Origin: Squalus acanthias
Lineage: Eukaryota
DNA: 64,000 nucleotides
Direction: 5' to 3'
Assembly: GCA_030390025.1 (NCBI GenBank)
Contig: CM059431.1
Span: forward strand, 96,908,001 to 96,972,000
Positions 3,894 through 59,340 of the stretch are shown here, piece after piece. Under the pieces are notes generated by a model, which saw only the letters and a program-made list of their open reading frames with translations, made no database searches and was not told the origin of the DNA. Position 1 is the stretch's first letter. Each line of letters opens with the position of its first letter. The position numbers were made by a program, and so were the translations under genes.

Positions 3894-4147
3894 GGTGACA
3901 GTGGGAACATGTGAAGGAGTGACAGTGGGAACATGTGAAGGGGTGACAGTGGGAACATGTGAAGGGGTGATAGTGGGAACATGTGAAGGGGTGACAGTGG
4001 GAACATGTGAAGGGGTGACAGTGGGAACATGTGAAGGGGTGACAGTGGGAACATGTGAAGGGGTGACAGTGGGAACATGTGAAGGGGTGACAGTGGGAAC
4101 ATGTGAAGGGGTGACAGTGGGAACATGTGAAGGGGTGACAGTGGGAA
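3894..4147. repeat. 24-bp minisatellite, about 10.5 copies
   Basis: Unit ggtgacagtgggaacatgtgaagg; explains the 8-aa repeat ORFs. Confidence 0.97.
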
Positions 4148-6565: not shown

Positions 6566-7690
6566 GACTCTGGTCTTACCCGAAGACTCACACTGAATGC
6601 GCAGTGCTGGTCGCCCAGGAATTCGATTGCGTGTGTCGTGTGTACCCGATACTGTGGCCCCACACATGACACCAGGTGTGTTCCCGTTGTTTGGGACATT
6701 TTACCCTTAAAGGTGCTATATAAATACAAGTCGTTGTTGTTGAAGACAAACTGAGAAACACTCTAGTGAGACGGGGCCAATTTTAAACCAAGAAACTTTT
6801 TTTACTTGAAGTATACGAATTAACAGAAGCGTTTTTTCAACGGATTCAATCAATTCCTTAGTGCTCCTTATGATATCAAAACGATAAATCAAGCAATTTT
6901 GCCCTTTCACATCGGCCTAACTCCCTTTACATGTCCTCGACCTCTGAACTGACTGCACTAGCCTAAGAAAGCGAGACAGCCACATCTCACTCTGACTGTT
7001 CCAGACTCAAGCCTGCTCAGACTGACTTTACCAGGGAGAGAAAAAGCAAAAGTGACCCCTGACCCCTCCCTCAGCTCTCTGCCAATGATTGACTTGCCAA
7101 GCTGCAAATCAAAGCTACCCACCATGTTGAATGAGTAACTTTCCTGCTCGGAACCATGGCAACTACAGTGCCTGTTCAGTTAGGCCTCTTACCAGTCTCG
7201 CATTACACTTGCAAACATCCCTGGAATGCTAATACTCGTACAAATGAACACTCATTGTCTCAAACTGATGTGGCATCACAGTTTTAATTGTTCACTCATT
7301 TTCCTTCAGGAAAGCTCCATCAATCTCCGAGCCATACTTTATTAGTTGGAAAAGTATGCTGCAATTCTGGGAACGTTATATCAGTGACATAACCCAGGAA
7401 ATTCTCGGAGCTGCTCCCATTCCGCCGGCATTACTCAGCTGGAAGTGCGGTGTAAAGGGAGTTTCCAACGCGCTGATGGAGGTGGAGCAGGAGCCACAAT
7501 ATAAAGTAGCGTGAAAACTCCTTCCAGAGTAAATATAGGTAAAAATTGCGAAACATTCCACCCCTGTAGAAATTCTTATGACTTGAATCTGGACAGATTG
7601 CCACAGCCACCAATTACTATTCACCCAGGGGTCCCCCATCTCCCACAGTAGCAGTGTAGCACCTGGCCAAGGTAGGACAGGAGGCTTCAA

Positions 7691-10592
7691 ACATAGAACA
7701 TAGAAGATAGGAGCAGGAGTAGGCCATTCGGCCCCTCGAGCCTGCTCCACCATTCAATGCGATTATGGCTGATCATCCAAAATCAGTACCCTGTCCCTAC
7801 TTTCTCCCCATATCCCTTGATCCCCTTAGCCTTAAGAAATATATCTAACTCCTTCTTGAATATATTTAATGAATTGGACTCAACTGTCTTCTGTGGTAGA
7901 GAATTCCACAGGTTCACCACTCTCTGGGTGAAGAAATTCCTCCTCATCTCAGTCCTAAATGGCTTACCCCTTATCTTTAGACTGTGACCCCTGGTTTTGG
8001 ACTCCCCCGCCATCGGGAACATCCTTCCTGCATCTAGTCTGTCTAGTCCTGTTAGAATTTTATAAGTTTCAATGAGATCCCCTCTCATTCTTCTAAACTC
8101 TAGCGAATACAAGCCCAAGTGACCCAATCTCTCTTCATACATCATTCCTGCCATCCCAGGTATCAGTCTGGTGAATCTTCGCTGCACACCCTCCATGGCA
8201 AGAACATCCTTCCTCAGATAAGGCGACCAGAACTGCACACAATACTCAAGGTGTAGTCTCACCAAGGCCTTGTACAACTGCAGCAAGACATCCTTGCTCC
8301 TGTACTCGAATCCTCTCGCAATGAAGGCCAACATACCATTTGCCTTCTTAACCGCCTGCTGCACCTGCATGCTTACCTTCAGCGACTGGTGCACAAGGAC
8401 ACCCAGGTCTCGTTGCACTTCCCCTTTTCCCAATCTATTGCCATTCAGATAATAATCTGCCTTCCTGTTTTTGCCACCAAAGTGGATAACCTCACATTTA
8501 TCCACATTATACTGCATCTGCCATGCATCTGCCCAATCACCCAACCTATCCAAATCATACTGGAGTTTCTCTGCATCCTCCTCACAGCACACACGCCCAC
8601 CCAACTTTGTGTCATCTGCAAACATGGATATATTACATCTAGTTCCCTCGTCTAGATCATTAATATATATTGTGAATAACTGGGTTCCTAGCACCGATCC
8701 CTGCGGTACCCCACTAGTCACTGCCTGCCACTTGGAAAAAGACCCGTTTATTCCAACTCTTTGCTTAATGTCTGCCAACTGGTTTTCTATCCAAGTCAGT
8801 ACCTTACCCCCAATCCCATGTGCTTTAACTTTGCATGCTAATCTCTTATGCGGGACCTTATCGAAAGCCTTCTGAAAGTCCAAATACACCACATCCACTG
8901 GTTCTCCCTTATCTATTCTACCAGTTACATCCTCAAAAAATTCCAGTAGATTAGTCAAGCATGATTTACCTTTTGCAAATCCACGTTGACGTTGTCCGAT
9001 CCTGTCACTGTTTTCCAAGTGCTCTGCTATTACATCTTTTATAATGGACTCTAGCATTTTCCCCACTACCGATGTCAGGCTTACCGGTCTATAATTCCCT
9101 GTTTTCTCTCTACCACCTTTTTTAAATAGTGGGGTTACATTAGCTACCCTTCAATCCATGGGAACTGTTCCAGAGTCTATAGAATTTTGGAAGATGACCA
9201 GCAATGCATCTACTATTTCTAGGGCCACTTCCTTAAGTACCCTAGGATGTAGATTATCAGGCCCTGGGGATTTATCGGCCTTCAATCCCATCAATTTCCC
9301 TAACACCATTTCCCTAGAAATACTGATTTCATGCAGTTCCTCCCTCTCATGAGACCCTATGTTCCCCGACATCTCTGGGAGGTTATTTGTGTCCTCCTTT
9401 GTGAAGACAGAATCAAAGTATGTATTTAATTGGTCAGCCATTTCTTTGTTCCCCATTATAAATTCCCCTGATTCTGACTGCAAGGGACCTACGCTTGACT
9501 TCACCAATCTTTTTCTCTTCACATATCTATAGAAGCTTTTACAGTCAGTTTTTATGTTCCCTGCAAGCTTACTCTCATACTCTATTTTCCCCTTCTTAAT
9601 TAATCCCTTTGTCCTCCTTTGCTGAATCCTAAACTGCTCCCAATCCTCAGGTTTGCTGCTTTTTCTGGCCAAATTATATGTCCTCTCCTTGGATCTTATG
9701 CTATCCCTAATTTCCCTTGTTAGCCACGGTTGAGTCACCTTTTTTGTTTAATTTTTATGCCAAACAGGGATGAACAAATTTTGTAGTTCATCCATGTGAT
9801 CTTTAAATGTTTGCCATTGCCTATCCACCGTCAACCCTTTAAGTAACGTTCCCCAATCCATCCTAGCCAACTCGCGCCTCATACCATCGTAGTTTCCTTT
9901 ATTTAAATTCAGGACCCTAGTCTCTGAGTCAACTACTTCACTCTCCATCTTAATGAAGAATTCTATCATATTATGATTGCTCCTCCCGAAGGGGCCTCGC
10001 ACAACAAGATTGCTAATTAATCCTTTCTCATTACATAATACCCAGTCTAAGATGGCCTGATCTCTGGTTGGTTTCTCGACATATTGGTCCAGGAAACCAT
10101 CCTGTATACACTCTAGGAATTCCTCCTCCACAGTATTGTTACTAATTTGATTAGCCCAATCTATATGTAGATTAAAGTCACCCATGATAACTGCTGTGCC
10201 CTTATTGCATGCATCTCTAATTTCCCATTTAATGCCATCCCCAACTTCAGCATTACTGTTTGGGGGTCTGTATACAACTCCCACTAACGTTTTCTGCCCC
10301 TTGATATTTCTCAGCTCTACCCATACAGATTCCACATCATCAGAGCTAATATCTTCCTTACTATTGTGTTAATCTCCTCTTTAACCAGCAATGCTACCCC
10401 ACCTCCTTTTCCCTTTTGCCTGTCCTTCCTGAATATTGAATACCCCTGGATGTTGAATTCCCAGCCTTGGTCACCCTGGAGTCATGTCTCCATAATCCCA
10501 ATTATATCATATCCGTTTACATCCATTTGTGCAGCTAACTCATCCACATTATTACGAATGCTCCTCGCATTAAGACACAAAGCCTTCAGTTT
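7691..10592 (-). mobile_element. CR1 LINE with near-complete, disrupted ORF2 and 3' tail
   Basis: RT ORF 7783..9066 ([22 protein letters not shown]), upstream ORFs 9151..9738 and 9748..10335, endonuclease start near 10590, (ttctatg)-type tail at 7691. Confidence 0.96.
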
Positions 10593-12700
10593 GCATGTTC
10601 TTGCCCACTCACGTAGCCTGTCTATTTCCCCTTGAAGCCTCTTTGCATCCTCCTCACAACTTACATTTCCACATAGCTTTGTATCATCAGCAAACTTGGA
10701 TACATTGCCCGAAAATGACCCATTTATTCCTACTCTCTGTTTTCTCTCCATTAACCATTCCTCAATCCATGCTAGTATATTGCCCCCAATCCCATGAGCC
10801 CTAATTTTGTTTAATAACCTCTTGTGTGCCACCTTATCGAATGCCTTCTGAAAATCCAAATTCATCACATCCACTAGTTCCCCCTTATCTATTCTGCTAG
10901 TTACAACCTCAATAAACTCGGACAGATTTGTCAAACATGATTTCCCTTTCATAAATCCATGTTGACTCTGCCCAATCCTATTATTATTTTCTAAGTGCCC
11001 TGTTACCATGTCCTTAATAATAATTGTAGCATTTTCCCTACCACTGATGTCAGGCTAACTGGTCTGTAGTTCCCCATTTTCTCTCTCCCTCCTTTCTTCA
11101 ATAGTGGCGTTATATTTGCTATCTTCCAAACCACTGGAACCATTCTAGAATCTATGGAATTTTGGAAGAAGACAACCAATGCATTCACTATCTCTATAGC
11201 AACCTCTTTCAAAATCCTAGGATGTAGGCCATCAGGTGCACAGGATTTATCAGCTTTCAGTCCCATTAATTTCCCCAGAACTTTTTTTTACGAATACTAA
11301 TTTCTTTCATTTCCTCATTCTCGCTAGACCCTTTGTTCTCCGCTATTTCTGGGAGTTTTTTTTGCGTCTTCTTCCATGAAGACAGACACAAAGTATTTGT
11401 TTAATTTCTTCACCATTTCCTTATTCCCTATTATAATTTCTCCTGTCTCAGCCTGTAAAGGACCCACATTTACTTTTGCTAATCTTTTCCTTTTTACATA
11501 CCTATAGAAGCTTTTACAATGTGTTTTTATTTCTCTTGCTAGTTTACTCTCATATTCTATTTTCCCTTTCTTTATCAATTTCTTGGTCCTCCTTTGCTGA
11601 ATTCTAAAATTCTCCAAATCCTCAGGCGTACTGTACTTTTTGGCAACATTATAAGCCTCTTCCTTTGATCTAATACTATCTTTAACTTCTCTTGTTAGCC
11701 ACGGTTGGACTACTTTTCCTGTGGGGTTTTTGTGCCTTAAAGGAATGTATATTTGTTGAAAATTATGTATTAATTCATTAAATGCTAGCCATTGCTTGTC
11801 TACCATCATATCTTTTAATGTAGTTTCCCAAACTATCTTAGCCAAATCGCCCCTCATACCTACATAGTTTGCTTTGTTTAGATTTAAGACCCTAGTTTCA
11901 GATTTAACGAAATCACTTTCGAACTTAATACAAAATTCCATCATATTATGGTCACTCTTCCCTAAAGGCCCTTTTACTGCAAGGTTATTAATTAATCCTT
12001 TCTCATTGCACAATACTAGATCTAAAATAGCCTGTTCCCTAGTTGGTTCCTCAACACACTAATTTCCTGATTTATACTCTGCCCTACATTACAACTACTG
12101 TTTGGGGGCCTATAAACAACTCCCACCAATGTTTTCTGTCCCTTGCTGTTTCTTAGCTCCACCCAAACTGATTTTACTTCTAGATTTTTGGAGCTAAGAT
12201 CCTTTCTCTCTACTGTCTTTATCCCATCCTTTATTATCAGGGCTACTCCTCTTCCTTTTCCATTTTGCTTATCTCTTTTAAACATTACATATCCTGGAAT
12301 ATTTAGTTCCCAACCATGGTCACTTTGCAACCACATCTCCATAATGGCTATTAGATCAAACCTATTAATTTCTATCTGTGCTATTAATTCATCTATTTTG
12401 TTGCAAATGCTTCGTGCATTCAGATATAGTGCCTTTAGCTTTGACTTATTTCTATTTTTCCCTGATGTCCTCTTAGTCACTGATTCCCTATTACCTTTGT
12501 TACTCTCTCTGTCCCTTCCTGACCCACTCTGCTTATTTTTACCCCAAACTCTGCTCTGCTCTAGAGCCTTGGCATTTCTCTCGCTGCTTTTAAGTTTACT
12601 CTTTCTTGAATCCTCCCACCCACCCACCTTCATTAGTTTAAAGCCCTGTCTACTGCCCTAGTTATTCGATTCGCCAGGACACTGGCTCCAGCCTGATTAA
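10593..12700 (-). mobile_element. Second CR1 subfamily copy, 3'-truncated with internal deletions
   Basis: ORFs 12022..12633 (endonuclease), 11324..12013, 11003..11266 and 10482..11009 (RT part). Segments are missing near 12060 and 10708 relative to other copies. Confidence 0.92.
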
Positions 12701-13279
12701 TGAATGAGTCCACAGCATTGAGCAAATTAAAACCCCAAAACATCACCTCAAAACCCAACTACTGCAAGGGATTTTCTCTGTGGGGAACATTTTTTGTTAT
12801 CTGTGATCAGCCTATTTCTGAAGCATGGGTTTAGGAGGCAAGTTGTACAGTTATTTTTCAGGAATTAACTGAGTACAGCACATGCTGTTTCGTTACATTA
12901 TTCCGGGCACATCAACACCCGAGTCCACACAATACAAACCTCCGCCAGACCTCAGCCGCCCTTGGAGCTGAGCCCGGCCCGGCCCAGCCAGACCCCACTG
13001 CCTCCCTCTGAGTCCACGGCTTCTCTCTCACTGGCGCAGCACCGCCTGCCCGTACAGCCCTTTCCCGTCCCATCCTGGGAACCTGCGAACCGGGGCACGT
13101 TGCCTCCTCTCTTCCTGCCTCCCTGGGTTTTAAAAAGGGTAAAATACAGGTAGAAGGTTCAATATCGTGCTCCCGGTGCGCTGCCGGGGCTGCCGGCGAT
13201 TTCCCATCTATTCAATAGTGGGCTGGCCGCCTGGTACACCGACAGCAGACAGACATCAAATAAGCTGACAGCTCATCGA

Positions 13280-13372
13280 CTGTTTCTCTCTCCACAGAAG
13301 CTGCCTGACCTGCTGAGTATTTCCAGCATTTTCTGTTTCTATTTCAGATCTCCAGCATCCGCAGTGTTTTGC
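13280..13372 (+). mobile_element. Older Penelope-like terminal fragment
   Basis: ctgtttctctctccacagaagctgcctgacctgctgagtatttccagc...ccagcatccgcagtgttttgc. Confidence 0.8.
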
Positions 13373-13514
13373 TTTGTTTTTATTTTATGAAAGAAAGGCT
13401 CCCGATTACCTTAGTGAAGGGACCTGTGTGAGGGCACAGGACAACCATGGAGACTTACACAACAGTGGGTGGGAAACATTGAGGAAAGGAGTCAACAGAT
13501 TGAGTTATATCGCG

Positions 13515-13748
13515 AAATAACAACAGAAAACGCTGGAAAAACTCAGCAGGCCAGGTAGCATCCGTGGAGAGAGAAACAGAGTCGATGAGCTGTCAGCTTA
13601 TTTGATGTCTGTCTGCTGTCTGACGAAAGGTCTTCGACCTGAAACGTTAACTCTGTTTCTCTCTCCACGGATGCTGCCTGGCCTACTGAGTTTTCCAGCG
13701 TTTTCTGTTGTTATTTCGGATTTCCAGCATCCGCAGTATTTTGCTATC
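13515..13748. mobile_element. Inverted pair of Penelope-like termini with captured 40-bp spacer and 13-bp TSD
   Basis: Minus terminus 13515-13580, spacer 13581-13620, plus terminus 13620-13748 with ctgacga...gaaacgtt; gagttatatcgcg at 13502-13514 and 13749-13761. Confidence 0.88.
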
Positions 13749-14210
13749 GAGTTATATCGCGTCTTGACTGTAGAGAAACAGCCTGAGGCTTCTCAGAGGA
13801 GCATCAATTTACTGACACATTGCTATCAGCATATTATGAAAAACTAATCCAATCTAATCGTTGACACGGTGCACAGATGCTGCTATTGCCTCCAAAGGGT
13901 TAATTTATTTGATAGAATAAAATATAAAAAGACTTCCCATCACTTTCTGCCGCTTTGCGGTTCAGTAAAATGTCAGTCATTTATCACCCGCTCAATGACG
14001 TCTTCCAATGCTAACATCTCACTAATTTGCAAGTTATCTGCAGTTCCATTCACCTCCTTTTCTAACAATACACCTCTGCTTCTGCACCTCACGGATGAAG
14101 CAAATGTGGTTTCATATTTAGCGCGAGCGATCACAGGGAATTGGCTCAATGTTACTCGCTTCACTGCTCAGAGTGACCATCCTTCAACTCTAATGATTGA
14201 GGGCGTCAGT

Positions 14211-16697
14211 TCCCAGTCTGACCCTAACCTGTGGTCACTCTCAGCGCTCCCAGTCTGACCCTAACCTGTGGTCACTCTCAGAGCTCCCAGCCTGACCCTA
14301 ACCTGTGGTTGCTCTCAGCGCTCCCAGTCTGACCCTAACCTGTGGCCGCTCTCAGCGCTCCCAGTCTGACCCTAACCTGTGGTCACTCTCAGAGCTCCCA
14401 GTCTGACCGTCACCTGTGGTCACTCTCAGAGCTCCCAGCCTGACTGTAGCCTGTGGTCACTCTCAGAGCTCCCAGTCTGACCCTAACCTGTGGTCACTCT
14501 CAGAGATCCCAGTCTGACCGTAACCTGTGGTCACTCCCCGAGCTCCCAGTCTGACTGTCACCTGTGGTCACTCTCAAAGATCCCAGTCAGACCCTAACCT
14601 GTGGTCACTCTCAGAGTTCCAAGCCTGACTGTAGCCTGTGGTCACTCTCAGAGCTCCCAGTCTGACCCTAACCTGTGGTCACTCTCAGAGCTCCCAGTCT
14701 GACCGTAACCTGTGGCCACTCTCAGAGCTCCAAGTCTGACCTTAACCTGTGGTCACTCTCAGAGCTCCCAGTCTGACCGTAACCTGTGGTCACTCCCCGA
14801 GCTCCCAGTCTGACCCTAACCTGTGGTCACTCTCAGAGCTCCCAGCCTGACCCTAACCTGTGGTCACTCTCAGAGCTCCCAGTCTGACCGTAACCTGTGG
14901 TCACTCTCAGAGCTCCCAGCCTGACCCTAACCTGTGGTCACTCTCAGAGCTCCCAGTCTGACCGTAACCTGTGGTCACTCTCAGAGCTCCTAGTCTGACC
15001 GTCACCTGTGGTCATTCTCGGAGCTCCCAGTCTGATCCTAACCTGTGGTCACTCTCAGAACTCCTAGTCTGACCCTAACCTGTGGTCACTCTCAGAGCTC
15101 CCAGCTTGACTGTAACCTGTGGTCACTCCCAGAGCTCCCAGTCTGACCCTAACCTGTGGTCACTCTCAGAGCTCCCAGTCTGACCGTAACCTGTGGTCAC
15201 TCTCAAAGATCCCAGTCTGACCCTTACCTGTGGTCACTCCCAGAGCTCCCAGTCTGACCCTAACCTGTGGTCACTCTCAGAGCTCCCAGTCTGACCCTAT
15301 CCTGTGGTCACTCTCAGAGCTCCCAGTCTGACCGTCACCTGTGGTCATTCTCGGAGCTCCCAGTCTGATCCTAACCTGTGGTCACTCTCAGAACTCCTAG
15401 TCTGACCCTAACCTGTGGTCACTCTCAGAGCTCCCAGCTTGACTGTAACCTGTGGTCACTCCCAGAGCTCCCAGTCTGACCCTAACCTGTGGTCACTCTC
15501 AGAGCTCCCAGCTTGACTGTAACCTGTGGTCACTCCCAGAGCTCCCAGTCTGACCCTAACCTGTGGTCACTCCCAGAGCTCCCAGTCTGACCGTAACCTG
15601 TGGTCACTCTCAAAGATCCCAGTCTGACCCTTACCTGTGGTCACTCTCAGAGCTCCCAGCCTGACCGTAAACTGTGGTCACTCTCAGAGCTCCCAGTCTG
15701 ACCGTATCCTGTGGTCACTCTCAGAGTTCCCAGTATGACATAACCAGTGGTCACTCTCAGAGCTCACAGCCTGATGTAACCTGTGGTTACTCCCCGAGCT
15801 CCCAGCCTGACCGTAACCTGTGGTCACTCAGTGCTCCCAGTCTGACTGTAACCTTCGGGCACTCTCAGAGCAACAGTATGACTGTAACCTGTGGTCGCTC
15901 TTATAGTGACTGTCTGACTATAACCTACGGGCACTCTCATAGACAGTCTGACTGTAACCTGTGCGCACTCTCATAGACAGTCTGATTGTAACCTGTGGGC
16001 ACTCTCAGAGTGACAGTCTGACTGTAATGTGCGGGCATTCTCATAGACGGTCTGACTGCAACCTGTGGTCACTCTTATAGTGACAGTCTGACCATAACCT
16101 GTGGGCACTCTCAGAGCGACAGTCTGACTATAACCTGTGGGCACTCTCATTGACAGTATGACTGTAACTTGTGGGCACTCATAGTGACAGTCTGACCGTA
16201 ACTTGTGGGCACTCTCAGAGCAACAGTCTGACTGTAACCTGTGGGCACTCTCAGAGCGACAGTCTGACTGTAACCTGTGGGCACTCTCAGAGCAACAGTC
16301 TGACTGTAACCTGTGGCACTCTCAGAGCGACAGTCTGACTGTAACCTGTGGGCACTCTCAGAGCAACAGTCTGACTGTAACCTGTGGCACTCTCAGAGCG
16401 ACAGTCTGACTGTAACCTGTGGGCACTCATAGTGACAGTCTGACTGTAACCTGTGGGCACTCTCAGAGCAACAGTCTGACTGTAACCTGTGGGCACTCTC
16501 AGTGCGACAGTCTGACTGTAACCTGTGGGCACTCTCAGAGCAACAGTCTGACCGTAACCTGTGGGCACTCATAGTGACAGTCTGACTGTAACTTGTGGGC
16601 ACTCTCAGAGCGACAGTCTGACTGTAACCTGTGGGCACTCTCAGAGCGACAGTCTGACTGTAACCTGTGGGCACTCTCAGAGCGACAGTCTGACTGT
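14211..16697. repeat. 2.5-kb minisatellite: 37-bp domain grading into a 36-bp domain
   Basis: Left unit cagtctgaccctaacctgtggtcactctcagagctcc; right unit cagtctgactgtaacctgtgggcactctcagagcga; transition about 15700-16200. Confidence 0.97.
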
Positions 16698-20291: not shown

Positions 20292-21842
20292 GATAGCAAA
20301 ATACTGCGGATGCTGGAAATCCAAAATAACAACAGAAAACGCTGGAAAAACTCAGCAGGCCAGGGAGCATCCGTGGAGCGAGAAACAGAGTTAACGTTTC
20401 AGGTCACAGACCTTTTGTCAGAACTGGAAAAAAGCAGGAAATGAAATAGATTTAAAGCAAGTATAAAGCTGGGAAAAGGGGGAGGGGATGAAGGAACAAA
20501 AGGGAAGGTCAGTGGTAGGAGAGATTAAGAGACATTGAGAGACATTAAGAGATAATCAAGGCAAGAGGAGGTGGTAATGTGACAGGTTGAGGCTAGATGA
20601 AGTGTGAAATGCGCTGGCAGAATGAAGGACAGCTGCCAGCTTCTGGGAGGGATAAAAAAGGCCAAACAAAAGGGTAGATGAAAAAATAAAATAAAAATTT
20701 ATATTTTTACATTTACATTTATATTTTTTTATTTTATTTTTTCATCCACCCTTTTGTTTGGCCTTTTTTCCCCCTCCCAGAAGCTGGCAGCTGTCCTTCA
20801 TTCTGCCAGCGCATCTCACACTTCATCTAGCCTCAACCTGTCACATTAACACCTCCTCTTGCCTTGAATATCTCTTAATGTCTCTCAATGTCTCTTAGGG
20901 CTGGATTTTCATTGACCCGTGGAGGCGGGTTTGGAGGCGTGTGGGGGGTTAAAATTGCAAAAACTGGCGGGCGGGCACAGGTCCGCCTCCATCCCGCCTC
21001 CACGCAATTTTCATTAAATCGTGTCTGCTGGTCCCGACTCCATCCCGCCTTTAAGAGGCAGGATAGGCTGTTAAGGCCCTTAACAAGCACTAAATTGGCT
21101 CTATAATGCCATTTTGAAAGGCCTTTGTGATTTTAACCCTTGATCTACGTGAAGCACGCCTGTTCTGAACCACGATTGTGAAACCTGGCGGGAGCACATT
21201 TGGATAGCTGACTATCAGCTGCAGGTCCACTATTACAACGGAGATGTGATGAAGGTAGTAGTAGTATTAGGTCTGAAAGTCGCCTCTGATGCTGCTGCAT
21301 TGAACGTCTTCAGAGACTGCCTGGCCTTTGCTGTGAGAGGACCTGGATGCAAAAAAAAAATCTCTCTCTCTCTCTCTCGCTGCTGCTCATTTTGCATCCA
21401 GGTCCTCTCACAGCAAAGGCCAGGCAGTCTCTGACCTTCAATGCAGCAGCAATGATGACATCATCAGAGGCGACTTTCAGACTGAAAACACTAATTGGTT
21501 CATGGGTTCCCACATGCTGGAACTCAATTGCCCAATTAGGTGAAAATTGCATCAATCTCCCACATCCAATTGCAGTCGGGTGGATAACATGAAATGTGGA
21601 TGACACGACCCCAACCCACCCCAGTATCAAAATCCAGCCCTTAATCTCTCCCACCACTGACCTTCCCTTTTGTTCTTTTATCCCCTCCCCCTTTTCCCAG
21701 CTTTATACTTGCTTTAAATCTATTTCATTTCCTGCTTTTTTCCAGTTCTGACAAAAGGTCTTCGACCTGAAACGTTAACTCTGTTTCTCTCTCCACGGAT
21801 GCTGCCTGGCCTGCTGAGTTTTTTCGGCATTTTCTGTTGTTA
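20292..21842. mobile_element. Fold-back Penelope-like insertion (two ~0.4-kb inverted arms), interrupted by a MITE
   Basis: 20322-20700 is the near-exact reverse complement of 20720-20897 plus 21641-21842; 14-bp TSD tgtcgaattatgtc at 20278-20291 and 21843-21856. Confidence 0.9.
20898..21640. mobile_element. Non-autonomous PIF/Harbinger MITE, 743 bp
   Basis: 12-bp TIR gggctggatttt / aaaatccagccc; TTA duplicated on both sides; the empty site is preserved in the other palindrome arm. Confidence 0.92.
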
Positions 21843-21877
21843 TGTCGAATTATGTCATTAGGACCACGATGCAATTT

Positions 21878-31799: not shown

Positions 31800-34200
31800 C
31801 TGCCATCCCCCTATAAAAACATGGAAATAGTCTAAGAAAGGATAAGAAAAGCAAGGAGAAGAGTATAAGGAGACAATCTGAAGAAATATTAAAAAAGCAG
31901 TAAAGTACAAATATATCAGTAAAAAGAGAACAGTTGAATGTGAGGTGGGTTCTCAAGAGGAGAGCGAGTTGTGGAGGATAAAGCACAAAGGAAGGTGGTT
32001 GTGGTTGTTGGAGGCCAATCATCTGAGCCCCAGGACATCGCTGCAGGAGTTCCTCAGGGCAGTGTCCTGGGCCCAACTATCTTCAGCTGCTTCATCAATG
32101 ATCTTCCCTCCATCATAAGGTCAGAAGTGGGGCTGTTCACTGATGATTGCACAGTGTTCGCAACTCCTCAGATAATGAAGCTGTCCATGCCCGAATGCAG
32201 CAACACCTGAACGACAGTCAGGCTTGGGCTGATAAGTGGCAAGTAACATTCGCGGCACACAAGTGCCAGGCAATGAGCATCCCCAACAAGAGTCTAACTA
32301 CCGGCCCTTGACATTCAATGGCATTACCATCGCTGAATCCCCCACCATCAGCATCCTGCGGGTCCTCATTGACCAGAAACTTAACTGGACCAGCCACATA
32401 AATACTGTGGCTGCAAGAGCAGGTCAGAGGCTGGGTATTCTGCAGCGAGTGGCTCACCTCCTCACTCCCCAAAGCCTTTCCACCATCTACAAGGCACAAG
32501 TCAGGATTGTGATGGAATACTCTCCACTTGCCTGGATGAGTGCAGCACCAACAACACTCAAGAAGCTCGACACCATCCAGGACAAAGCAGACCGCTTGAT
32601 TGGCACCCCATCCACCACCTTAAACATTCACTCCCTCCACCACCGGCACACCGTGGCTGCAGTGTGTACCATCTACAAGATGCAATGCAGCAACTCGCTG
32701 AGGCTTCTTCAGCAACACCTCCCAAACCCGCGACCTCTACCACCTAGAAGGACAAGGGCAGTAAGCGCATGGGAACACCATCAAATCCAAGTTCCCCTCT
32801 AAGTCACACACCATCCTGACTTGGAAGTATATCGCCGTTCCTTCATCGTCACTGGGTCAAAATCCTGGAACTCCCTCCCTAACAGCACTGTAGGAGTACC
32901 TTCACCACACGGACTGCAGCGGTTCAAGAAGGCGGCTCACCACCACCTTCAAGGGAAATTAGGGATGGGTAATAAATGCTGGCCTTGCCAGTGACGCCCA
33001 CAACCTTTGAATGAATAAAAATAAAGCAGAAATTAGCTGGGATGCTTAGCAAGTACTTTACTTCCGTGTTTCTAAAAGAGATGGATATTAGGGAAGAGGT
33101 AAAACCGGAGCTGGTTAAAAAAGAGCTGAGAGATATAATAAATACAAGGAAAGTATTAGAGAAGTTAAACTAAAGGAGGACAAGGTGCTGGGACATGATG
33201 GATTACAGTCAAGGGTCCGGAGAGAAATGGGGAAGAAATAGCAGAGGTCCTAGAAATAATATTTCAGGTTTCTGTTGAAAGTGGATGTGTGCCGGAGGAT
33301 TGGACAGTTGCCAATGTAGACAGAGCTAATCCCAGGAATTACAGGCCAGGTAGTTTTAATATGTGGCATGGAAAATTTTGGGATCTTTAATTTAAGATGG
33401 CATTATTAAATATCTAGATGTAGAACATAATTAGAAGCAGCCAACATGATTTTCAGAAAGGAAGATGGTGCTTGATAAACCTGATCGAGTTCTTCCAGGA
33501 GGGGACAGATATCATGGATGGGAAAATACAGTGGCTGTGTTATACAGGGATTTACAGAGAGCCTTTGACAAGGTACCACACAGGAGACTATTGGAGAAGA
33601 TTAAGGAGTGTGGAAGGGGGGAGGGTAGCAAATTGGGGTTAGAAGGGAGGAAACGGAGAGTAGGAGTTAAGGACAGTTTCTCAGACTGGCTGGAAGTGGG
33701 TAGTGGTGTCCCTCAGCATTCTGTTCTGGGCCACTTCTGTTCACTGTGTACATCAATAATTTGGATATAAGGCTAGAGGGAGTGATGTCCAAATTTGCAG
33801 ATGATGTTAAAATAGTAATTCTGAGGACCAAAGGAACATGCGAGGGGATATTGATAAGCTGGTGGATTGGGCAACAAAGTGGCAGCTGAAATTGAATGTC
33901 AGTAAATGTAAATCTTTCACATTACCCAGCTTTCCCCCATTCAAAGTACAATTATTACTTTTATTTTTACCAAAATGTACCACCTCTGATTTACTGACAT
34001 TGAATTCCATCTCCCACTATTTTATCAATGTCTCCTGGCTGCTATTTTTTGGTCCTCAGAATTATTTATTATGCTTCCTATTTTAGTATCATCTGAAAAT
34101 TTGGACATCACTCCATCAAGCCCTATATTCAAATCATTTAAGTACACTGTGAACAGAAACGGATCAGTACCCTGCCCTAGGAAAGGACACTGTCCTCTTG
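31800..34200. mobile_element. Old degraded CR1 (plus, 31800-33910, split by a younger LINE) abutting a minus-strand CR1 fragment (33910-34200)
   Basis: DLQRAFDKVPHRRLL and SGVPQ in ORF 33465..33770; minus ORFs 34025..34213 (SKFSDDTK) and 33807..34010 (MEFNVSK). Confidence 0.75.
31982..33022 (+). mobile_element. 5'-truncated LINE of a distinct CR1/L2-group family
   Basis: [27 protein letters not shown] in ORF 31971..32210; C-terminal ORF 32236..32802; ends tgaatgaataaaa; ataaagca on both flanks. Confidence 0.9.
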
Positions 34201-34671: not shown

Positions 34672-36782
34672 GCCCAGAAATTGGGCTACTTAGCGCCACT
34701 GGTTTGCCCCACAATCCTGGTAAAAAAAATAGCGGCCGCCACGCTAATGCCCGCCATTTTGGTGATGGCCTTAGCACTGCCGATAGCAGCGCTGGCCCTG
34801 GAGATGCAAATATGGAGAGCGTGATGTCACGTTGACTTAACGTCACACTCTGCGAACTTGGACCTTTGCGCTGGTTCCTAAGCGAGCGTGCAGCAAATTG
34901 ACAGAGACGCTGTCAGCACTTCTCAAATTGACACATACATCTTTCAGGTAAGTTTGCATTTAAGCTTTTTGACTGGATTTTTTATGTTTTATTGAAGTAG
35001 TGGTTTGGTGCAATACATGTTAAAAGTGTTTAAAGTGTGCAGGAAATGCTGCTGGCCGCTTACAAGGCCTCGGAGATTAAGGAAGGCCTCTGCGAAGACA
35101 GAAAAAGCTAGAAATACACAGCAGGTCAGGCAGCATCCGTGGAGAGAGAAACAGAGTTCACATCTCAGGTCGCGTTGCTGCCTGACCTGCTGAGTATTTC
35201 CAGCATTTTAAGTTTTTTATTTCAGATTTAAAGCATCTGCTCGCAGAGAGAAGAGAGGAAGCAGAAGGAAGGATGCAACCCAGGCAGTCCCTTTCTAGCC
35301 GGGATATCCAGGGTGGAATGATCCACCTGCAGTACCAGTGACCACAACCCCAATTCCCCTTTCAACATTTGTCCCACACCTTACCTTCCCTCCATTACTG
35401 ACCATCACAGTGTCTTCTTGGCCACAATGCGGAAATAAAAGCCACCACAAAGCAAACTTTCCAATCCAACTTTATACATCTATCCATCCAATATGACATC
35501 AAGACGCCAACTAATCACCTTTATGCATTCCTTTAGTGACTGTCTTGTGTGTATCTTTGCCTATCCTACTGATGTCACGCAGTGCTACCCCAGTGGCTGC
35601 AGCATGGCTGGTGGAAGGCTGCTGACTTTTAGTAGGGGACACTGCAGATGGCCTTGCTGGTCAACCTTGAATAGCTGGTGGCTGAGAGTGTGAAATTTAG
35701 TGGCGGTATTTCTTCTTCACTCTCCTCCCCCTCTTCTTGGCCAACCACTGGCTGGGCAGGCTGCATTTCTTGGGTGTGTGAAATGAGGAAGGCACAAGGG
35801 TGGAGTTGTGGTGAGGGGAGGGCGGGAAAGCAAGAGGTGCATGCGAGAAGGAGGATAACGTACGAAAATACCAGCATCTTATATCGTTCAGCTCTGCCAC
35901 TGGCCAAGGGCTCAGCCATGCCCCTGCCAAGAATGGCCAGCACCGCCTCATCCAAGGGGGTGAGGGGAAGCTAGGAAAGGGAGGTGTGCCTCATGTTTGG
36001 TACAGATTATTGGTAGGTGAGGTGAGTGATGGGGGGGGAGTGAGGTGACAGGGAGTCATGCATTGAGCAGTGTGTGAGGCTGTTGGTAGGAGATGGCTTT
36101 TGAAGATGCAGTCACTGACCTTGACCACTGGTCTGAGGTCGTGAAGCTTCTTTGGGCATTGGAGTCAGGTGGTGGGGCGACATTGCTGGCAGTGACGGCC
36201 TCGCTGATTGGGCCCCATATCCTTCTATCTGGAGGGCCTCCTGGCCCCTGTGGGTTGAGGACCTTTCTTGCAGTGTTGACCCCCTGCACAAAGCTGGAGT
36301 GCTGTGTGTGAGACCCTGGGTGCCCCTTCCCTGGCTTGCTGGGCCATTTGTGTTAGTGCTGAAGCACATTTCCCGTTTTTTGAGGTGCGGAAGGCAATTC
36401 AGCTTTAAGAGCTGAAGTCTGCCATTTGGGAATTCTTTTTAACATCAATTTTTTTTTCAGAAGGCAGTTGAGCTGTAAGGGCTAAAGACTGCCTATTTTT
36501 AAATGATTTTTATTTTTTTCATTTTAGAAGGTAGTTCCCCTTTAAAGTGACAGGCTTGCTTCAAGAGAAGGCTGTTCTTGCTGCAATGATGCTACGTCCA
36601 CGCTACATTGGGTCTCCTGCTGGGACGAACGCCATGAAAGCGGCCTTGCACGGTAAGTTTAGCGCTGGGCTAATGTTAATTAGCAACTAGTACCAAAATC
36701 CCATCCTGCCAGTGCCATTATTTTCGGCGGCCATTACCACGGTGGCACCGACAGGTTTTTAGCGATCTGAAATTTCTCGGCC
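34672..36782. mobile_element. Internally deleted Harbinger element with decayed Myb/SANT gene on the minus strand
   Basis: Termini gcccagaaatt and aatttctcggcc flanked by TGA on both sides. Minus strand near 36120-36160 reads QCPKKLHDLRPVVK|gtcagt, versus QCRKKFNDLTRVVR|gtgagt at 61550. MDEAVLAILGRGMAEPLASGRAE parallels exon 2. Confidence 0.8.
35097..35240. mobile_element. Inverted pair of short Penelope-like termini
   Basis: cagcaggtcaggcagca near 35120 and tgctgcctgacctgctg near 35176 form a hairpin. Confidence 0.8.
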
Positions 36783-40365: not shown

Positions 40366-42320
40366 ATTGGGAGCAGTTTAAGATTCAACAAAGGAGGACA
40401 AAGGGATTAATTAAGAAGGGGAAAATAGAATACGAGAGTAAGCTTGCAGGGAACATAAAAACTGACTGTAAAAGCTTTTATAGATATCTGAAGAGAAAAA
40501 GATTAGTGAAATCAAGCATAGGTCGCTTGCAGTCAGAATCAGGGGAACTTATAATGGGGAACAAAGAAATGTCAGACCAATTAAATACATATTTTGGTTC
40601 TGTCTTCACAAAGGAGGACACAAATAACCTCCCAAAGATGTTGGGGAACATAGGGTCTGATGAAAGGGAGGAACTGAAAGAAATCAGTATTTGTAGGGAA
40701 ATGGTGCTAGGGAAATTGAAGGGATTGAAGGCCGATAAATCCCCAGGGCCTGATAATCTACATCCTAGGGTACTTAAGGAACTGGCCCTAGAAATAGTAG
40801 ATGCATTGCTGATCATCTTCCAACATTCGATGGAATCTGGAACAGTACCCATGGATTGGAGGGTAGCTAATGTTACCCCACTATTCAAAAAGGGTGGTAG
40901 AGAGAAAACGGGGAATTACAGACCGGTAAGCCTGACATCGGTAGTGGGGAAAATGCTAGAGTCCATTATAAAAGATGTAATAGCTGATCACTTGAAAAAC
41001 AGTGACAGGATCGGACAAAGTCACCATGGATTTACAAAAGGTAAATCATGCTTGACTAATCTACTGGAATTTTTTGAGGATGTAACTGGTAAAATAGATA
41101 AGGGAGATCCAGTGGATGTGGTGTATTTGGACTTCCAAAAGGCTTTTGATAAGGTCCCGCATAAGAGATTAGCGTGTAAAGTTAAGGCACATGGGATTGG
41201 GGGCAAGGTATTGACTTGGATAGAGAACTGGTTGGCAGACAGAAAGCAAAGAGTTGGAATAAACGGGTCTTTTTCCGAGTGGCAGGCAGTGACTAGTGGG
41301 GTACCGCAGGGATCGGTCCTTGGACCCCAGCTATTCACAATATATATTAATGATCTAGACAAGGGAACTAGATGTAATATCTCCAAGTTTGCAGATGACA
41401 CAAACTGGGTGGGCGTGTGTACTGCGAGGAGGATGCCGAGAAACTCCAGGATGATTTGGACAGGTTGGGTGATTGGGCAGAAGCATGGCAGATGCACTAT
41501 AACGTGGATAAATGCGAGGTTATACACTTTGGTGTCAAAAACAGAAAGGCAGATTATTATCTGAATGGCAATAGATTGGGAGAAGAGGAAGTGCAACAAG
41601 ACCTGGGTGTCCTTGTGCACCAGTCGCTGAAGGTAAGCATGCAGGTGCAGCAGGTGGTTAAGAAGGCAAATGGTATATTGGCCTTCATAGCGAGAGGATT
41701 CGAGTACAGGAACAAGGATGTCTTGCTGCAGTTGTACAGGGCCTTGGTGAGACCACACCTTGAGTATTGTGTGCAGTTTTGGTCGCCTTATCTGAGGAAG
41801 GATGTTCTTGCCATGGAAGGAGTTCAGCGAAGATTCACAAGGCTGATACCTGGGATGGCAGGAATGATGTATGAAGAGAGATTGGGTCGATTGGGCTTAT
41901 ACTCGCTGGAGTTTAGAAGAATGAGAGGGGATCTCATTGAAACTTATAAAATTCTGACAGGACAGGACAAACTAGATGCAGGAAGGATGTTCCCGATGAT
42001 CGGGGAGTCCAGAACCAGGGGTCACAGTCTAAGGATAAGGGGTAAGCCATTTAGGACAGAAATGAGGAGGAATTTCTTCACCCAGAGAGTGGTGAACCTG
42101 TGAAATTCTCTGCCACAGAAGGCAGTAGAGGCCAATTCATTAAATATATTCAAGAAGGAGTTGGATATATTTCTTAAGGCTAAAGGGATCAAGGGATATG
42201 GGGGAGAAAGCAGGGACAGGGTACTGAGTTTGGATGATCAGCCATGACCGCATTAAATGGCGGAGCAGGCTAGAGGGGCCGAATGGCCTACTCCTGCTCC
42301 TATCTTCTATGATTCTATGA
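40366..42320 (+). mobile_element. 5'-truncated CR1 LINE
   Basis: RT ORFs 40506..41564 and 41417..42103 (frameshift near 41403); tail ttctatgattctatga. Confidence 0.96.
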
Positions 42321-43241
42321 TTGCCAACCTGGCCCTTCCCCCCCAAGTTCTTCCCTACCATGCAGTGAGAGACCCAAGCGCAGCAACAGATGAGGTGAAA
42401 ATTAAATCTGGTCAGTGACTGGAGCAGACCGAGTCCAAGGCAGGGTGGATTGACCGGGTTTGAAGAGGCTCCTGGAGAGTTGTGTTGGTCTGTGAATGCC
42501 TTCTGCCTGCTCCAAGTGCTTCTGGCCCAGTCCAAGCACTTCCTGGGTCATCAGAGTGTCACTGGGGCTGATAATAATCGCGGGACAGGGCAGACAGACA
42601 GATACTAAGCTACAGGTTTAGCATGCAACAGGTAAACGGGGCTGTCAGCAGGCTTCTGCGACCCATCATGTGGGAGGCTGGCGAGTGATGCTCATATGGG
42701 GTGAAGGTATCGTATTATCGGCCTGATGTCTGTGTTATGTTACCCCATGCTCAGCTGAAATAGGTTTATTTTCTGTTATCAGGCCGTGTGCAGCACTTCA
42801 TATAAACCTGAGCAAATGGCAAAGCGGATTTGACTGTGCCCCTGGGAGAAAGGAGGCTCGGGGACAAGAGCTCTAAAACACATTACATGAATTTTGGGTG
42901 AGGGGGGCGGGTGGTGTTTCGCTGACAGATACAAGAATTGAGGACTAACTGCCCCTGAATTTCCATACACTGGTGTCCCATGTTGAGGAAAAGGCCAGAA
43001 AATGTACACAATAATCATCTGTTTCTCTGACCAGGGCAAAAAGACATTGACTGTGGCCAGGAAGTAGGCAAAGCTGATCAACAATGGTGTGTGGATCAAG
43101 AGCTTTCATCTTCTGCCAAATGATTTACAAAAGCAGCAGGCTTAAGTTACAGAGACCTGCTGCCAGCGTAAATACATTGGCAACAGCCGCAGTGTATCAT
43201 ATCCAACGTAGTTCAAGTACCTGGCGGTGGATGGTTGTGAA

Positions 43242-44094
43242 ACACACTGTAAAATACAGCTGTACCCGTCAAACACACTGTAAAATACAGCTGTACCCGT
43301 CAAACACACTGTAAAATACAGCTGTACCCGTCACACACACTGTAAAATACAGCTGTACCCGTCAAACACAGCGTAAAATACAGCTGTACCCGTCAAACAC
43401 ACTGTAAAATACAGCTGTACCCGTCACACATACTGTAAAATACAGCTGTACCCGTCAAACACACTGTAAAATACAGCTGTACCCGTCAAACACAGTGTAA
43501 AATACAGCTGTACCCGTCAAACACAGTGTAAAATACAGCTGTACCCGTCAAACACACTGTAAAATACAGCTGTACCCGTCAAACACAGTGTAAAATACAG
43601 CTATACCCCTCACACACACACAATGTAAAATACAGCAGTACCCGTCACACAGTGTAAAGTACCGCTGTACTCGTCACACACACTGTGTAAAATACAGCTG
43701 TACCCATCACACACACTGTAAAATACAGCTGTACCCATCACACACACTGTAAAATACACCTGTACCCATCACACACTGTGTAAAATACAGCTATACTCAT
43801 CACACACACTGTGTAAAATACAGCTATACCCATCACACACACTGTAAAATACAGCTGTACCCATCACACACACTGTGTAAAATACAGCTGTACCCATCAC
43901 ACACACTGTGTAAAATACAGCTGTACCTGTCACACACACTGTAAAATACAGCTGTACCCATCACACACACTGTGTAAAATACATCTGTACCCATCACACA
44001 CACTGTGTAAAATACAGCTGTACCTGTCACACACACTGTAAAATACAGCTGTACCCATCACACACACTGTAAAATAAAGCTGTACCCGTCACAC
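43242..44094. repeat. 31-33-bp minisatellite, left part
   Basis: Unit acacactgtaaaatacagctgtacccgtcaa. Confidence 0.96.
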
Positions 44095-46721
44095 CAATAC
44101 CAAGGGGCAGAAAACGTTAGTGGGAGTTGTATACAGACCCCCAAACAGTAATGCTGAGGTTGGGGATGGCATTAAACGGGAAATTAGAGATGCGTGCAAT
44201 AAGGGCACAGCAGTTATCATGGGTGACTTTAATCTACATATAGATTGGGCTAACCAAATTAGTAACAATACTGTGGAGGAGGAATTCCTAGAGTGTATAC
44301 GGGATGGATTCCTGGACCAATATGTCGAGGAACCAACTAGAAATCAGGCCATCTTAGACTGGGTATTATATAATGAGAAAGGATTAATTAGCAATCTTGT
44401 TGTGCGAGGCCCCTTGGGGAGGAGCGATCATAATATGATAGAATTCTTCATTAAAATGGAGAGTGAAGTAGTTGACTCAGAGACTGCGGTCCTGAATTTA
44501 AATAAAGGAAACTACGATGGTATGAGGCATGAGTTAGCTAGGATGGATTGGGGAACGTTACTTAAAGGGTTGATGGTGGATAGGCAATGGCAAACATTGA
44601 AAGATCGCATGGATGAACTACAGAATTTGTTCATCCCTGTTTGGCATAAAAATAAAACAAAAAAGATGACTCAAACGTGGCTAACAAGGGAAATTAGGGA
44701 TAGCATAAGATCCAAGGAGAGGACATATAATTTGGCCAGAAAAAGCAGCAAACCTGAGGATTGGGAGCAGTTTAGGATTCAGCAAAGGAGGACACAGGGA
44801 TTAATTAAGAGGGGGAAAATAGATCATGAGAGTAAGCTTGCAGGGAACATAAAAACTGACTGTAAAAGCTTCTATAGATATGTGGAGAGAAAAAGATTGG
44901 TGAAGTCAAGCGTAGATCCCTTGCAGTCAGAATCAGGGGAATTTATAATGGGGAACAAAGAAATGGAAGACCAATTAAATACATACTTTGGTTCTGTCTT
45001 CACAAAGGAGGACACAAATAACCCCCCAGAGAGGTCAGGGAACATAGGGTCTAATGAGAGGGAGGAATTGAATGAAATCAGTATTTGTAGGGAAATGGTG
45101 TTAGGGAAATTGACGGGATTGAAGGCCGATAAATCCCCAGGGCCTGATAATCTACATGCTAGGGTACTTAAGGAACTGGCCCTAGAAATAGTAGATGCAT
45201 TGCTGGTCATCTTCCAAAATTCTATAGACTCTGGAACAGTTCCCCTGGATTGGAGGGTAGCTAATGTAACCCCACTATTTAAAAAAGGTGGTAGAGAGAA
45301 AACGGGGAATTATAGACTGGTAAACCTGACATCGGTAGTGGGGAAAATGCTAGAGTCCATTATAAAAGATGTAATAGCAGAGCACTTGGAAAATAGTGAC
45401 AGGATCGGACAAAGTCTACATGGATTTACAAAAGGTTAATCATGCTTGACTAATCTACTGGAATTTTTTGAGGATGTAACTGGTAGAATAGATAAGGGAG
45501 AACCAGTGGATGTGATGTATTTGGACTTTCAGAAGGCTTTCGATAAGGTCCCGCATAAAAGATTAGCATGCAAAGTTAAAGCACATGGGATTGGGGGTAA
45601 GGTACTGACTTGGATAGAAAAGTAGTTGGCAGACAGGAAGCAAAGAGTTGGAATAAACGGGTCTTTTTCCGAGTGGCAGGCAGTGACTAGTGGGGTACCA
45701 CAGGGATCGGTGCTAGGACCCCAGTTATTCACAATATATATTAATGATCTAGACGAGGGAACTAGATGTAATATCTCCAAGTTTGCAGATGACACAAAGC
45801 TGGGTGGGTGTGTGTGCTGTGAGGAGGATGCAGAGAAACTCCAGTATGATTTGGACAGGTTGGGTGATTGGGCAGATGCATGGCAGATGCAGTATAATGT
45901 GGAAAAATGCGAGGTTATCCACTTTGGTGGCAAAAACAGGAAGGCAGATTATTATCTGAATGGCAATAGATTGGGAAAAGGGGAAGTGCAACGAGACCTG
46001 GGTGTCCTTGTGCACCAGTCGCTGAAGGTAAGCATGCAGGTGCAGCAGGCGGTTAAGAAGGCAAATGGTATATTGGCCTTCATAGCGAGAGGATTCGAGT
46101 ACAGGAGCAAGGATGTCTTGCTGCAGTTGTACAGGGCCTTGGTGAGACCACACCTTGAGTATTGTGTCCAGTTTTGGTCGCCTTATCTAAGGAAGGATGT
46201 TCTTGCCATGGAAGGAGTTCAGCGAAGATTCACAAGGCTGATACCTGGGATGGCAGGAATGACGTATGAAGAGAGATTGGGTCGATTAGGCTTGCATTCA
46301 CTAGAGTTTAGAAGAATGAGAGGGGATCTCATTGAAACTTATAAAATTCTAACAGGACTAGACAGACTAGATGCAGGAAGGATGTTCCCGATGGCGGGGG
46401 AGTCCAGAATCAGGGGTCACAGTCTAAGGATAAGGGGTAAGCCATTTAGGACTGAGATGAGGAGGAATTTCTTCACCCAGAGAGTGGTGAACCTGTGGAA
46501 TTCTCTACCACAGAAGGCAGTTGAGGCCAATTCATTAAATGTATTCAAGAAGGAGTTAGATATATTGCTTAAGGCTAAAGGGATCAAGGGATTTGGGGAG
46601 AAAGCAGGGACAGGATATTGAATTTGGATGATCAGCCATGATCTCATTAAATGGCGGAACAGGCTCGAGGGGCCGAATGGCCTACTCCTGCTCCTATCTT
46701 CTATGTTTCTATGTTTCTATG
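44095..46721 (+). mobile_element. Young 5'-truncated CR1 LINE inserted in a minisatellite
   Basis: ORFs 44120..45439 and 45626..46621 share a frame and are separated by two nonsense codons; tail ttctatgtttctatgtttctatg. Confidence 0.97.
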
Positions 46722-58677: not shown

Positions 58678-59340
58678 CAAATATAAACAAAAAATGCTGG
58701 AAATACTCAGCAGGTCAGGCAGCATCTGTGGAGAGAGAAACAGAGTTAACGTTTCAGGTCGATGACCTTTTGTCAGAACTGGAAAAAATTAGAGATGTAA
58801 CAGTATTTAAGCAAGTACAGAGGCAGGGAAAGGGGAGGTCTGTGACAGGGTGGAAGGCAGGAGTGATTAAATGACAAAAGATATGATTGTACAAAGCAAA
58901 AGGAGATGGTAATGGGACAAGTAAAGAAACAAAAGATGGGTCTAGAGGAGGTGTAAATGGGAATAGCAGAATCATCAACAGCTGCCATCTGAATAAATAG
59001 TGGCCGAGGTTATGGACTGAAATTGTTGAAATCAATGTTGAGTCCAGAAAGCTGTAAAGTGCCTAATCGAAAGATGAGGTGCTGTTCCTTGAGCTTAAGT
59101 TGAGCTTCGTTGGAACAGTGCAAGAGGCCGAGGACAGAGAGGTCAGAGTGGGAGTGGAGCAGAGAATGAAAGTGACAGGTGAACAGAAGCTCAGGGTCAC
59201 GCTTACGGACTGAACGGAGGTGTTCCGCAAAGTGGTCACCACTCTGCGTTCGGTCTCCCCAATGTAGAGGAGACCGCATCGTGAGCAGCGAATACAGTTT
59301 TTATTTCAGATTTCCAGAATCCGCAGGATTTTGCATCTGG
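58678..59340 (-). mobile_element. Penelope-like element 3' part with GIY-YIG endonuclease remnant and inverted terminal tail
   Basis: ORF 59010..59279 (DHFAEHLRSVRK..CHFHS..HS..LKEQHLIFRLGTLQLSGLN); hammerhead motif 58745-58782 in sense orientation; inverted tail 59298-59337; ctcgatcat at 58669-58677 and 59341-59349. Confidence 0.9.

Follow-up and report, generated by a model that had tools for sequence, protein, structure and literature searches.

Junctions templated by nearby DNA after an end has folded or snapped back are a known class of event at L1 and R2 insertions. Early cell-culture work on L1 reportedly also found pairing of the cDNA with resident L1 copies. For Penelope-like elements (PLEs), we know of no observation of the late steps of integration so far, and a literature search, in which subscription papers were thinly covered, found no such junction. 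For L1, a fold-back inverted duplication at an insertion site is outlined in the legend to Fig. S9C of PMC11702581, the part of that paper considered here: a resected end anneals to itself, synthesis proceeds along its own strand, and the end is released and joined to the reverse-transcribed end, leaving local DNA inverted inside the insertion. According to panels A and B, the pairing uses 6 to 14 bp of genomic homology at the reciprocal end, in cultured cells. A preprint on somatic L1 insertions (bioRxiv 2024.08.27.596794), in the sections available, gives 22 cases of non-L1 DNA, below 250 bp, that was copied during integration from templates within 15 bp of the site, and proposes that the cDNA pairs with nearby homologous DNA. 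In excerpts of the work on R2 (PMC11371274), which used engineered single-ended insertions in rDNA, the 3' end of the cDNA primes on the cDNA or, less often, on nearby target DNA before joining, with no pre-existing copy guiding the pairing. Snap-back SD-MMEJ combines inverted primer repeats, short synthesis, unwinding, and a microhomology join, with primers of 2 to 9 nt within about 30 nt of the break in the excerpted text of PMC5728401.

Integration of PLEs has been described for PAc, a Poseidon-type element of Anolis, which makes use of two start sites and cleaves as well as extends each of the two strands (PMC11167929, available in part). According to this source and general accounts of PLEs (PMC8557442 and PMC3846280, as excerpted), reverse transcription has two starts, the tail is confined to one end, a target duplication flanks the inverted termini, and a hammerhead ribozyme lies in the terminus; inverted termini, a target duplication, and a tail of 30 to 40 nt at one end only are given as standard in the latter two. 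In rotifer PLEs, unrelated DNA lies between solo pLTRs with a duplication (PMC3846280). The locus described here shares this layout, with a putative hammerhead. It differs from the three accounts, as far as their excerpts go, in that the spacer between the termini could be traced to the flank of an adjacent copy, within an insert that contains no open reading frame (ORF).

The locus lies in a 64-kb stretch of DNA, which was analyzed as a whole and is referred to below as the window. The insert occupies positions 13515 to 13748 and is framed by an exact 13-bp target-site duplication (TSD; 13502 to 13514 and 13749 to 13761), as the initial annotation had stated. Its left arm, located by alignment at 13515 to 13582 on the minus strand, is a terminus of a young subtype without the tail. 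The homology of this arm begins at 13513, so that the last 2 nt of the left TSD copy also match the element, which may reflect a priming microhomology. The right arm (13619 to 13748, plus strand) is a terminus of the same subtype; in the alignment, it begins with the first base of a putative hammerhead core and ends in a one-sided tail of 30 nt (13719 to 13748), by which it reaches past the left arm. Between the arms, 13580 to 13620 on the minus strand is an exact inverted copy of 13241 to 13281. The reverse complementarity had been noted earlier for 13581 to 13620 and 13241 to 13280; it was found to be exact and 1 base longer, giving 41 bp. The captured piece shares a 2-nt microhomology with the right arm at 13619 to 13620. 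The GIY-YIG endonuclease is absent at the locus. The inverted termini, the TSD, and the 30-nt tail at one end are those of a Penelope-like (EN+) insertion.

About 230 to 270 bp to the left of the insert lies the source of the captured piece, adjoining an older Penelope-like terminus with its tail (13280 to 13373, plus strand), the proposed landing site of the fold-back, which aligned to the right arm at 88%. No target duplication of this older copy was found at either of its candidate starts. When the arms were compared, the left arm (13513 to 13582, minus strand) and the right arm (13650 to 13718) differed at 3/70 positions, and the left arm and the older copy differed at 8/66; the split into two subtypes is therefore real. 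Both arms share subtype letters that are missing from the older copy. The subtype difference claimed in the initial annotation was thus confirmed by alignment, with one correction: in the right arm, the run quoted there is 4 T long instead of 5. The homology of the left arm ends 1 nt short of the ribozyme cleavage site predicted from the motif.

The 40-mer at 13241 to 13280 had been regarded as unique DNA abutting the older terminus. This holds for its 5' 24 to 32 nt only. A search of the window that allowed up to 3 mismatches gave exactly 2 occurrences of the 5' 32 nt (13241 to 13272, plus strand), against 0 expected from 100 shuffles, and these nt are present at the orthologous place in two related organisms (B and C, see below). 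By contrast, the last 8 nt (TCATCGAC, 13273 to 13280), and perhaps 16 nt from 13265, align to stem II of the ribozyme in older-subtype copies, so that 13265 to 13272 may be a decayed ribozyme core of the older copy. The chance of the stem II match was about 0.007 for 6 independent letters, a post hoc estimate. The last 8 to 16 nt are thus probably decayed older element, judging from the alignment, and 13273 to 13281 (plus strand), aligned to the copies at 58776 and 37549, is a probable 5' remnant of that element with stem II letters, copied along with the flank. Since the end of the 40-mer aligns to stem II, the captured piece would consist of 24 to 32 nt of single-copy flank plus the damaged 5' end of the older copy itself. 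At 13273 to 13282, the older copy has apparently lost 13 to 15 nt, comprising the second core segment and the cleavage site of the ribozyme, between two AC dinucleotides. The junction of this deletion marks this one locus as the donor.

In the window, 15 pieces of one short terminal repeat were found. Five of these run on upstream into the element, and all 5 have a pyrimidine run there, not the 40-mer. Four of the 15 (3503, 6564, 13620, and 37549) begin at the first base of the hammerhead core and have non-element DNA before it. This recurrent start is a hot spot of 5' ends about 30 nt upstream of the predicted cleavage site, and the 3 pieces other than the right arm that have it are flanked by target duplications of 13 to 16 bp with at most 1 mismatch. 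The putative hammerhead was recognized by visual comparison of its core letters, stem I, stem II, and a palindromic stem III region with the available part of PMC4209133, and cleavage is a prediction. A search against Rfam gave 0 matches at the gathering score in the whole window; below the threshold, 9 matches were obtained at the locus, none to a hammerhead, the top ones corresponding to the arm hairpin. The monomer fold of the hammerhead was not significant (z of -0.9). In the older-subtype copy at 58776, a broken frame reads CxxC and then YIG. Pfam returned no GIY-YIG match for any of the 3 broken endonuclease frames, and the third Atlas match (0.92) is a cluster with GIY-YIG in 23% of its members, which we treat as a lead only.

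For a comparison with relatives, four sequencing runs out of 24 listed were used, namely X1 (organism A, the best match), X7 (organism B), X8 (organism C), and X12 (organism D); X3 and all RNA runs were left out. The possibility that the 40-mer is element consensus and occurs in many unlinked copies, which the initial annotation had named as fatal to its reading, was not borne out. Ahead of either junction, the loose ends were normal element in each of the four runs: the loose-end consensus before 13280 is the ribozyme, and that before 13619 is a pyrimidine run ending in CCAGT. In X1 and X8, five listed sites of the 40-mer have the depth of the single orthologous contig, as do the flanks. The element itself gave summed depths in the millions, a summed depth being no copy number. 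In X7, the depth over 13255 to 13268 was 58.6, made up of 34.4 from the orthologue and 24.2 of unexplained source.

The insert is absent from both informative relatives, organisms B and C. In X7 and X8, one contig each crosses the site and joins 13346-13513 straight to 13773-14120 with no letters between, and a second contig each spans 12921 to 13313/13315, that is, the donor flank and the start of the older copy. Both ends of the older copy (to 13313/13315 and from 13346) are thus on orthologous contigs in these organisms. Since B and C carry the flank and the older copy but no insert, the donor predates the insert, which independently confirms that the terminus called older is older. The gap in B and C is 259 nt, 12 more than the insert plus one TSD copy. 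The extra 12 nt, just beyond the right TSD copy (13762 to 13773), are missing at the contig join, and no match of at least 7 nt was found for them within 12501 to 14200. The empty allele is therefore not a clean pre-insertion site. Organisms B and C have lineage-specific deletions elsewhere too (at 13917, against D), and a deletion that ends at the insertion site is an unexplained coincidence. A secondary loss of the insert from B and C could also have produced the 259-nt gap, but the substitution pattern given below makes this unlikely (0.004 to 0.03). Among the unique pieces listed, X12 covers 13819 to 14120 only and says nothing on the insertion site or the polarity of the 40-mer. Organisms A and B differ at 51/866 aligned letters; at the 12 listed sites that D covers, it has the letter of A 6 times and that of B/C the other 6 times (hand-read, 40 of 209 rows).

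Within the 40-mer, B and C have 5 listed substitutions, at 13255, 13257, 13264, 13266, and 13268. The captured copy has the allele of the window (organism A) at all 5. For an insert dating back to the split, the chance of this pattern would be 0.03, or 0.004 conditional on both copies staying unchanged. At 2 of the 5 sites, B/C have a CpG that has decayed in the window; only 13255 was used for CpG polarity, since 13266 could equally be ancestral ribozyme core. The contig spans in X1 (at its repeat-covered end), X7, and X8 imply a 2-nt insertion between 13269 and 13313/13315; were it located at 13279 to 13282, it would make the older junction identical to the captured one. Within organism A, one X1 contig (13351 to 13539, 0 differences) crosses the left junction by 25 nt and another (13740 to 14120) crosses the right junction by 9 nt. 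In their flanks, the contigs holding the outer junctions show 5 and 2 differences to the window, and the insert is therefore carried by another haplotype too. Among the contigs listed, outside of which there are 348,386 further pieces, none spans 13581 to 13620, so that the window is the one place where the captured piece itself is seen; across the donor, the X1 contig is unbroken.

Taken with the described systems, these data provide good support for a real, though single, fossil of fold-back copying where a Penelope-like element inserted. It has an inverted copy of nearby DNA, a donor that is older than the insert and unchanged, homology at the point of switching, and a microhomology at the return, as snap-back junctions do. 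The initial annotation had proposed that the nascent strand annealed to the nearby homologous copy, copied its flank, and jumped back. The local, pre-existing donor and a switch inside an identical tract support this; as for the partner of the annealing, a fold-back within one strand fits better than a neighboring duplex. When the strand from 13230 to 13582 was folded, a 66-bp stem (88% paired identity to the older copy) closing a 168-nt loop was predicted at -79.5 kcal/mol (z of -10), and 0/100 shuffles folded as well. The 3' end of this fold lies at the edge of the donor, and extension from there yields exactly the captured piece, inverted. The switch point falls inside an identical tract of 16 to 19 nt common to both subtypes, and the return is over 2 nt.

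We consider it probable that a single integration of a young Penelope-like element was interrupted by such a snap-back, with the capture occurring during integration. By analogy with PAc in vitro, the endonuclease would make staggered cuts in the two strands at a distance of 13 nt, and each of the two 3' ends would prime reverse transcription at the two start sites of the element. Of the two cDNAs, only the right one would then carry the 30-nt tail, the architecture that is observed. The left cDNA may stop at or near the ribozyme cleavage site. This stop is weakened by the PAc data, since no reads end at the cleavage site in the available part of PMC11167929. The opposite strand would then be resected or displaced over about 270 nt, and the top-strand end, presumably single-stranded, would fold onto its own strand. 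There it would meet the older copy, whose inverted orientation makes it a complementary partner of the left arm, for 66 bp of pairing within that strand. A polymerase, either the reverse transcriptase (RT) of the element or a host repair enzyme, would extend the end by about 39 nt along the 5' end of the older copy and its flank, and the product of this step is what is found. Finally, the extended end would be released and joined to the right cDNA at its usual stopping point through the 2-nt microhomology, an order of events to which the observed junction conforms. That the right arm starts at the recurrent start, as 4/15 pieces do, is expected of an unresected end made at the time of integration. 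One point against a fold-back is distance, because the snap-back repair described in the excerpts of PMC5728401 uses short repeats within about 30 nt of the break, compared with 270 nt here. We infer that the capture took place during integration rather than in later repair, and from DNA rather than from a read-through RNA. The captured piece is a repair scar without function.

The timing is where the strongest rival differs. An ordinary back-to-back insertion could have come first, and its hairpin apex could later have broken or stalled a replication fork, upon which the left end folded back, copied the flank, and was rejoined; or an early capture could have been followed by gene conversion that held the two copies alike. 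The two 41-mers differ at 0/41 positions, compared with 3/70 for the arms of this insert and 17/371 for those of a second insertion of the same subtype (20292 to 21843). This contrast is not significant alone (Fisher P of 0.29), but a simple clock model favors later capture or homogenization 4.3-fold, or 2.0-fold if the arm differences are ignored, and the identical fold-back stem could have been used at any time. On the other hand, the right arm starts at the recurrent integration-time start with no loss by resection, two events are needed instead of one, and a later gene conversion would have left the adjoining arm untouched, as this arm keeps its 8 differences from the older copy. A later event is, in our judgment, a rather doubtful explanation.

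Capture during integration could also have occurred at the level of RNA. Guided by homology, the RT would have left the RNA of the young element for a nascent transcript reading through the older locus, whose upstream part it then copied. A top-strand transcript would have the right strand and order, template switches of the RT and two-RNA insertions are described for L1 in the part of PMC11702581 considered, and the host DNA between the pLTRs of rotifer PLEs (PMC3846280, as excerpted) offers a parallel. However, the donor lies 270 nt from the break, on the side where a fold-back works, whereas a transcript could stem from any of very many copies, which makes a switch between RNAs unlikely. 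The share obtained with the RNA runs was at most 0.10.

Short-read assembly graphs are commonly pruned of short unique paths that run between repeats of great depth. The position of the captured piece in no independent contig among those listed, next to an X1 donor contig that is unbroken, could otherwise suggest an assembly error in the middle of the insert, or a variant there that only the assembled haplotype has; this pruning, the presence of both outer junctions in X1 contigs from another haplotype, and the improbability that an error would stop at the recurrent start site make such an origin highly improbable. That a subfamily consensus contains the 40-mer and was inserted independently at both places, for which the resemblance of its last 8 to 16 nt to the stem II region and the extra depth in X7 might speak, is the least credible explanation, given the single-contig depth at the five sites in X1 and X8, the normal element before both junctions genome-wide, the different upstream sequence in 5/5 longer window copies, and the different subtypes behind the two 40-mers. 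Even taken jointly, artifact and consensus are very unlikely.

Compared with the known cases, what differs is the order of the elements, the 66-bp guide provided by an older family copy, and the distance. In the L1 fold-back (PMC11702581, panels A and B), the pairing is with short genomic homology, whereas here the new cDNA pairs over 66 bp with an older copy of its own family, and the event is a germline fossil with a different element order. The template lies 230 to 270 bp away and is reached via a family copy, unlike the adjacent templates of the somatic L1 insertions (bioRxiv 2024.08.27.596794, sections available). An older copy would guide the pairing, in contrast to the excerpted R2 experiments (PMC11371274), and the 66-bp stem with its 168-nt loop differs from the short primers in the excerpts of PMC5728401. 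The class is already known from L1 and R2, and this one case changes no model. The scar, dated by the empty site in relatives, indicates that both cDNA ends can stay free and single-stranded for long enough to pair with DNA 270 nt away. A wider claim, that cDNA ends made from ribozyme-cleaved RNA of PLEs regularly fold back onto neighboring family copies in this genome, appears improbable to us at present. If true, each of the abundant old termini would serve as a landing pad from which its own flank is duplicated and inverted, and the spacers that separate back-to-back termini would be both a genome-wide record of the integration intermediate and the first in vivo sign of cleaved RNA as a template.

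As to generality, 3 back-to-back pairs are present in the window, and the spacer could be traced to local DNA in 1 of them. Of 15 chosen upstream 60-mers, 3 had matches to non-element DNA elsewhere, and all 3 were taken from this locus. The back-to-back layout was also sought by pattern in metagenome contigs, with 0 stretches returned, a result that is uninformative for a vertebrate repeat. The second insertion of the young subtype, at 20292 to 21843, is also back to back, with an exact 14-bp duplication, arms 17/371 apart, and a one-sided tail; it has an AT-rich apex near 20711 and no foreign spacer. Inside its right arm, at 20898 to 21640, lies an element of about 740 bp with short inverted ends and a 3-bp duplication, which we take to be Harbinger-like and which holds an imperfect 212-bp palindrome (21271 to 21482). 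The third pair (35098 to 35240) is older and has a 3-nt spacer, and no target duplication was found for it. The window is dense in LINE frames, presumably CR1-like. At 7688 to 10589 and 40366 to 46716, several LINE copies 93 to 96% alike occur in both orientations with long open frames, and an old imperfect inverted pair (65%) of LINE-like sequence lies at 33735 to 34158. At 14211 to 16694, a 37-bp minisatellite is present in 68 copies, and further arrays with units of 24 to 33 bp were observed at 3894, 29567, 39039, 43242, and 46720.
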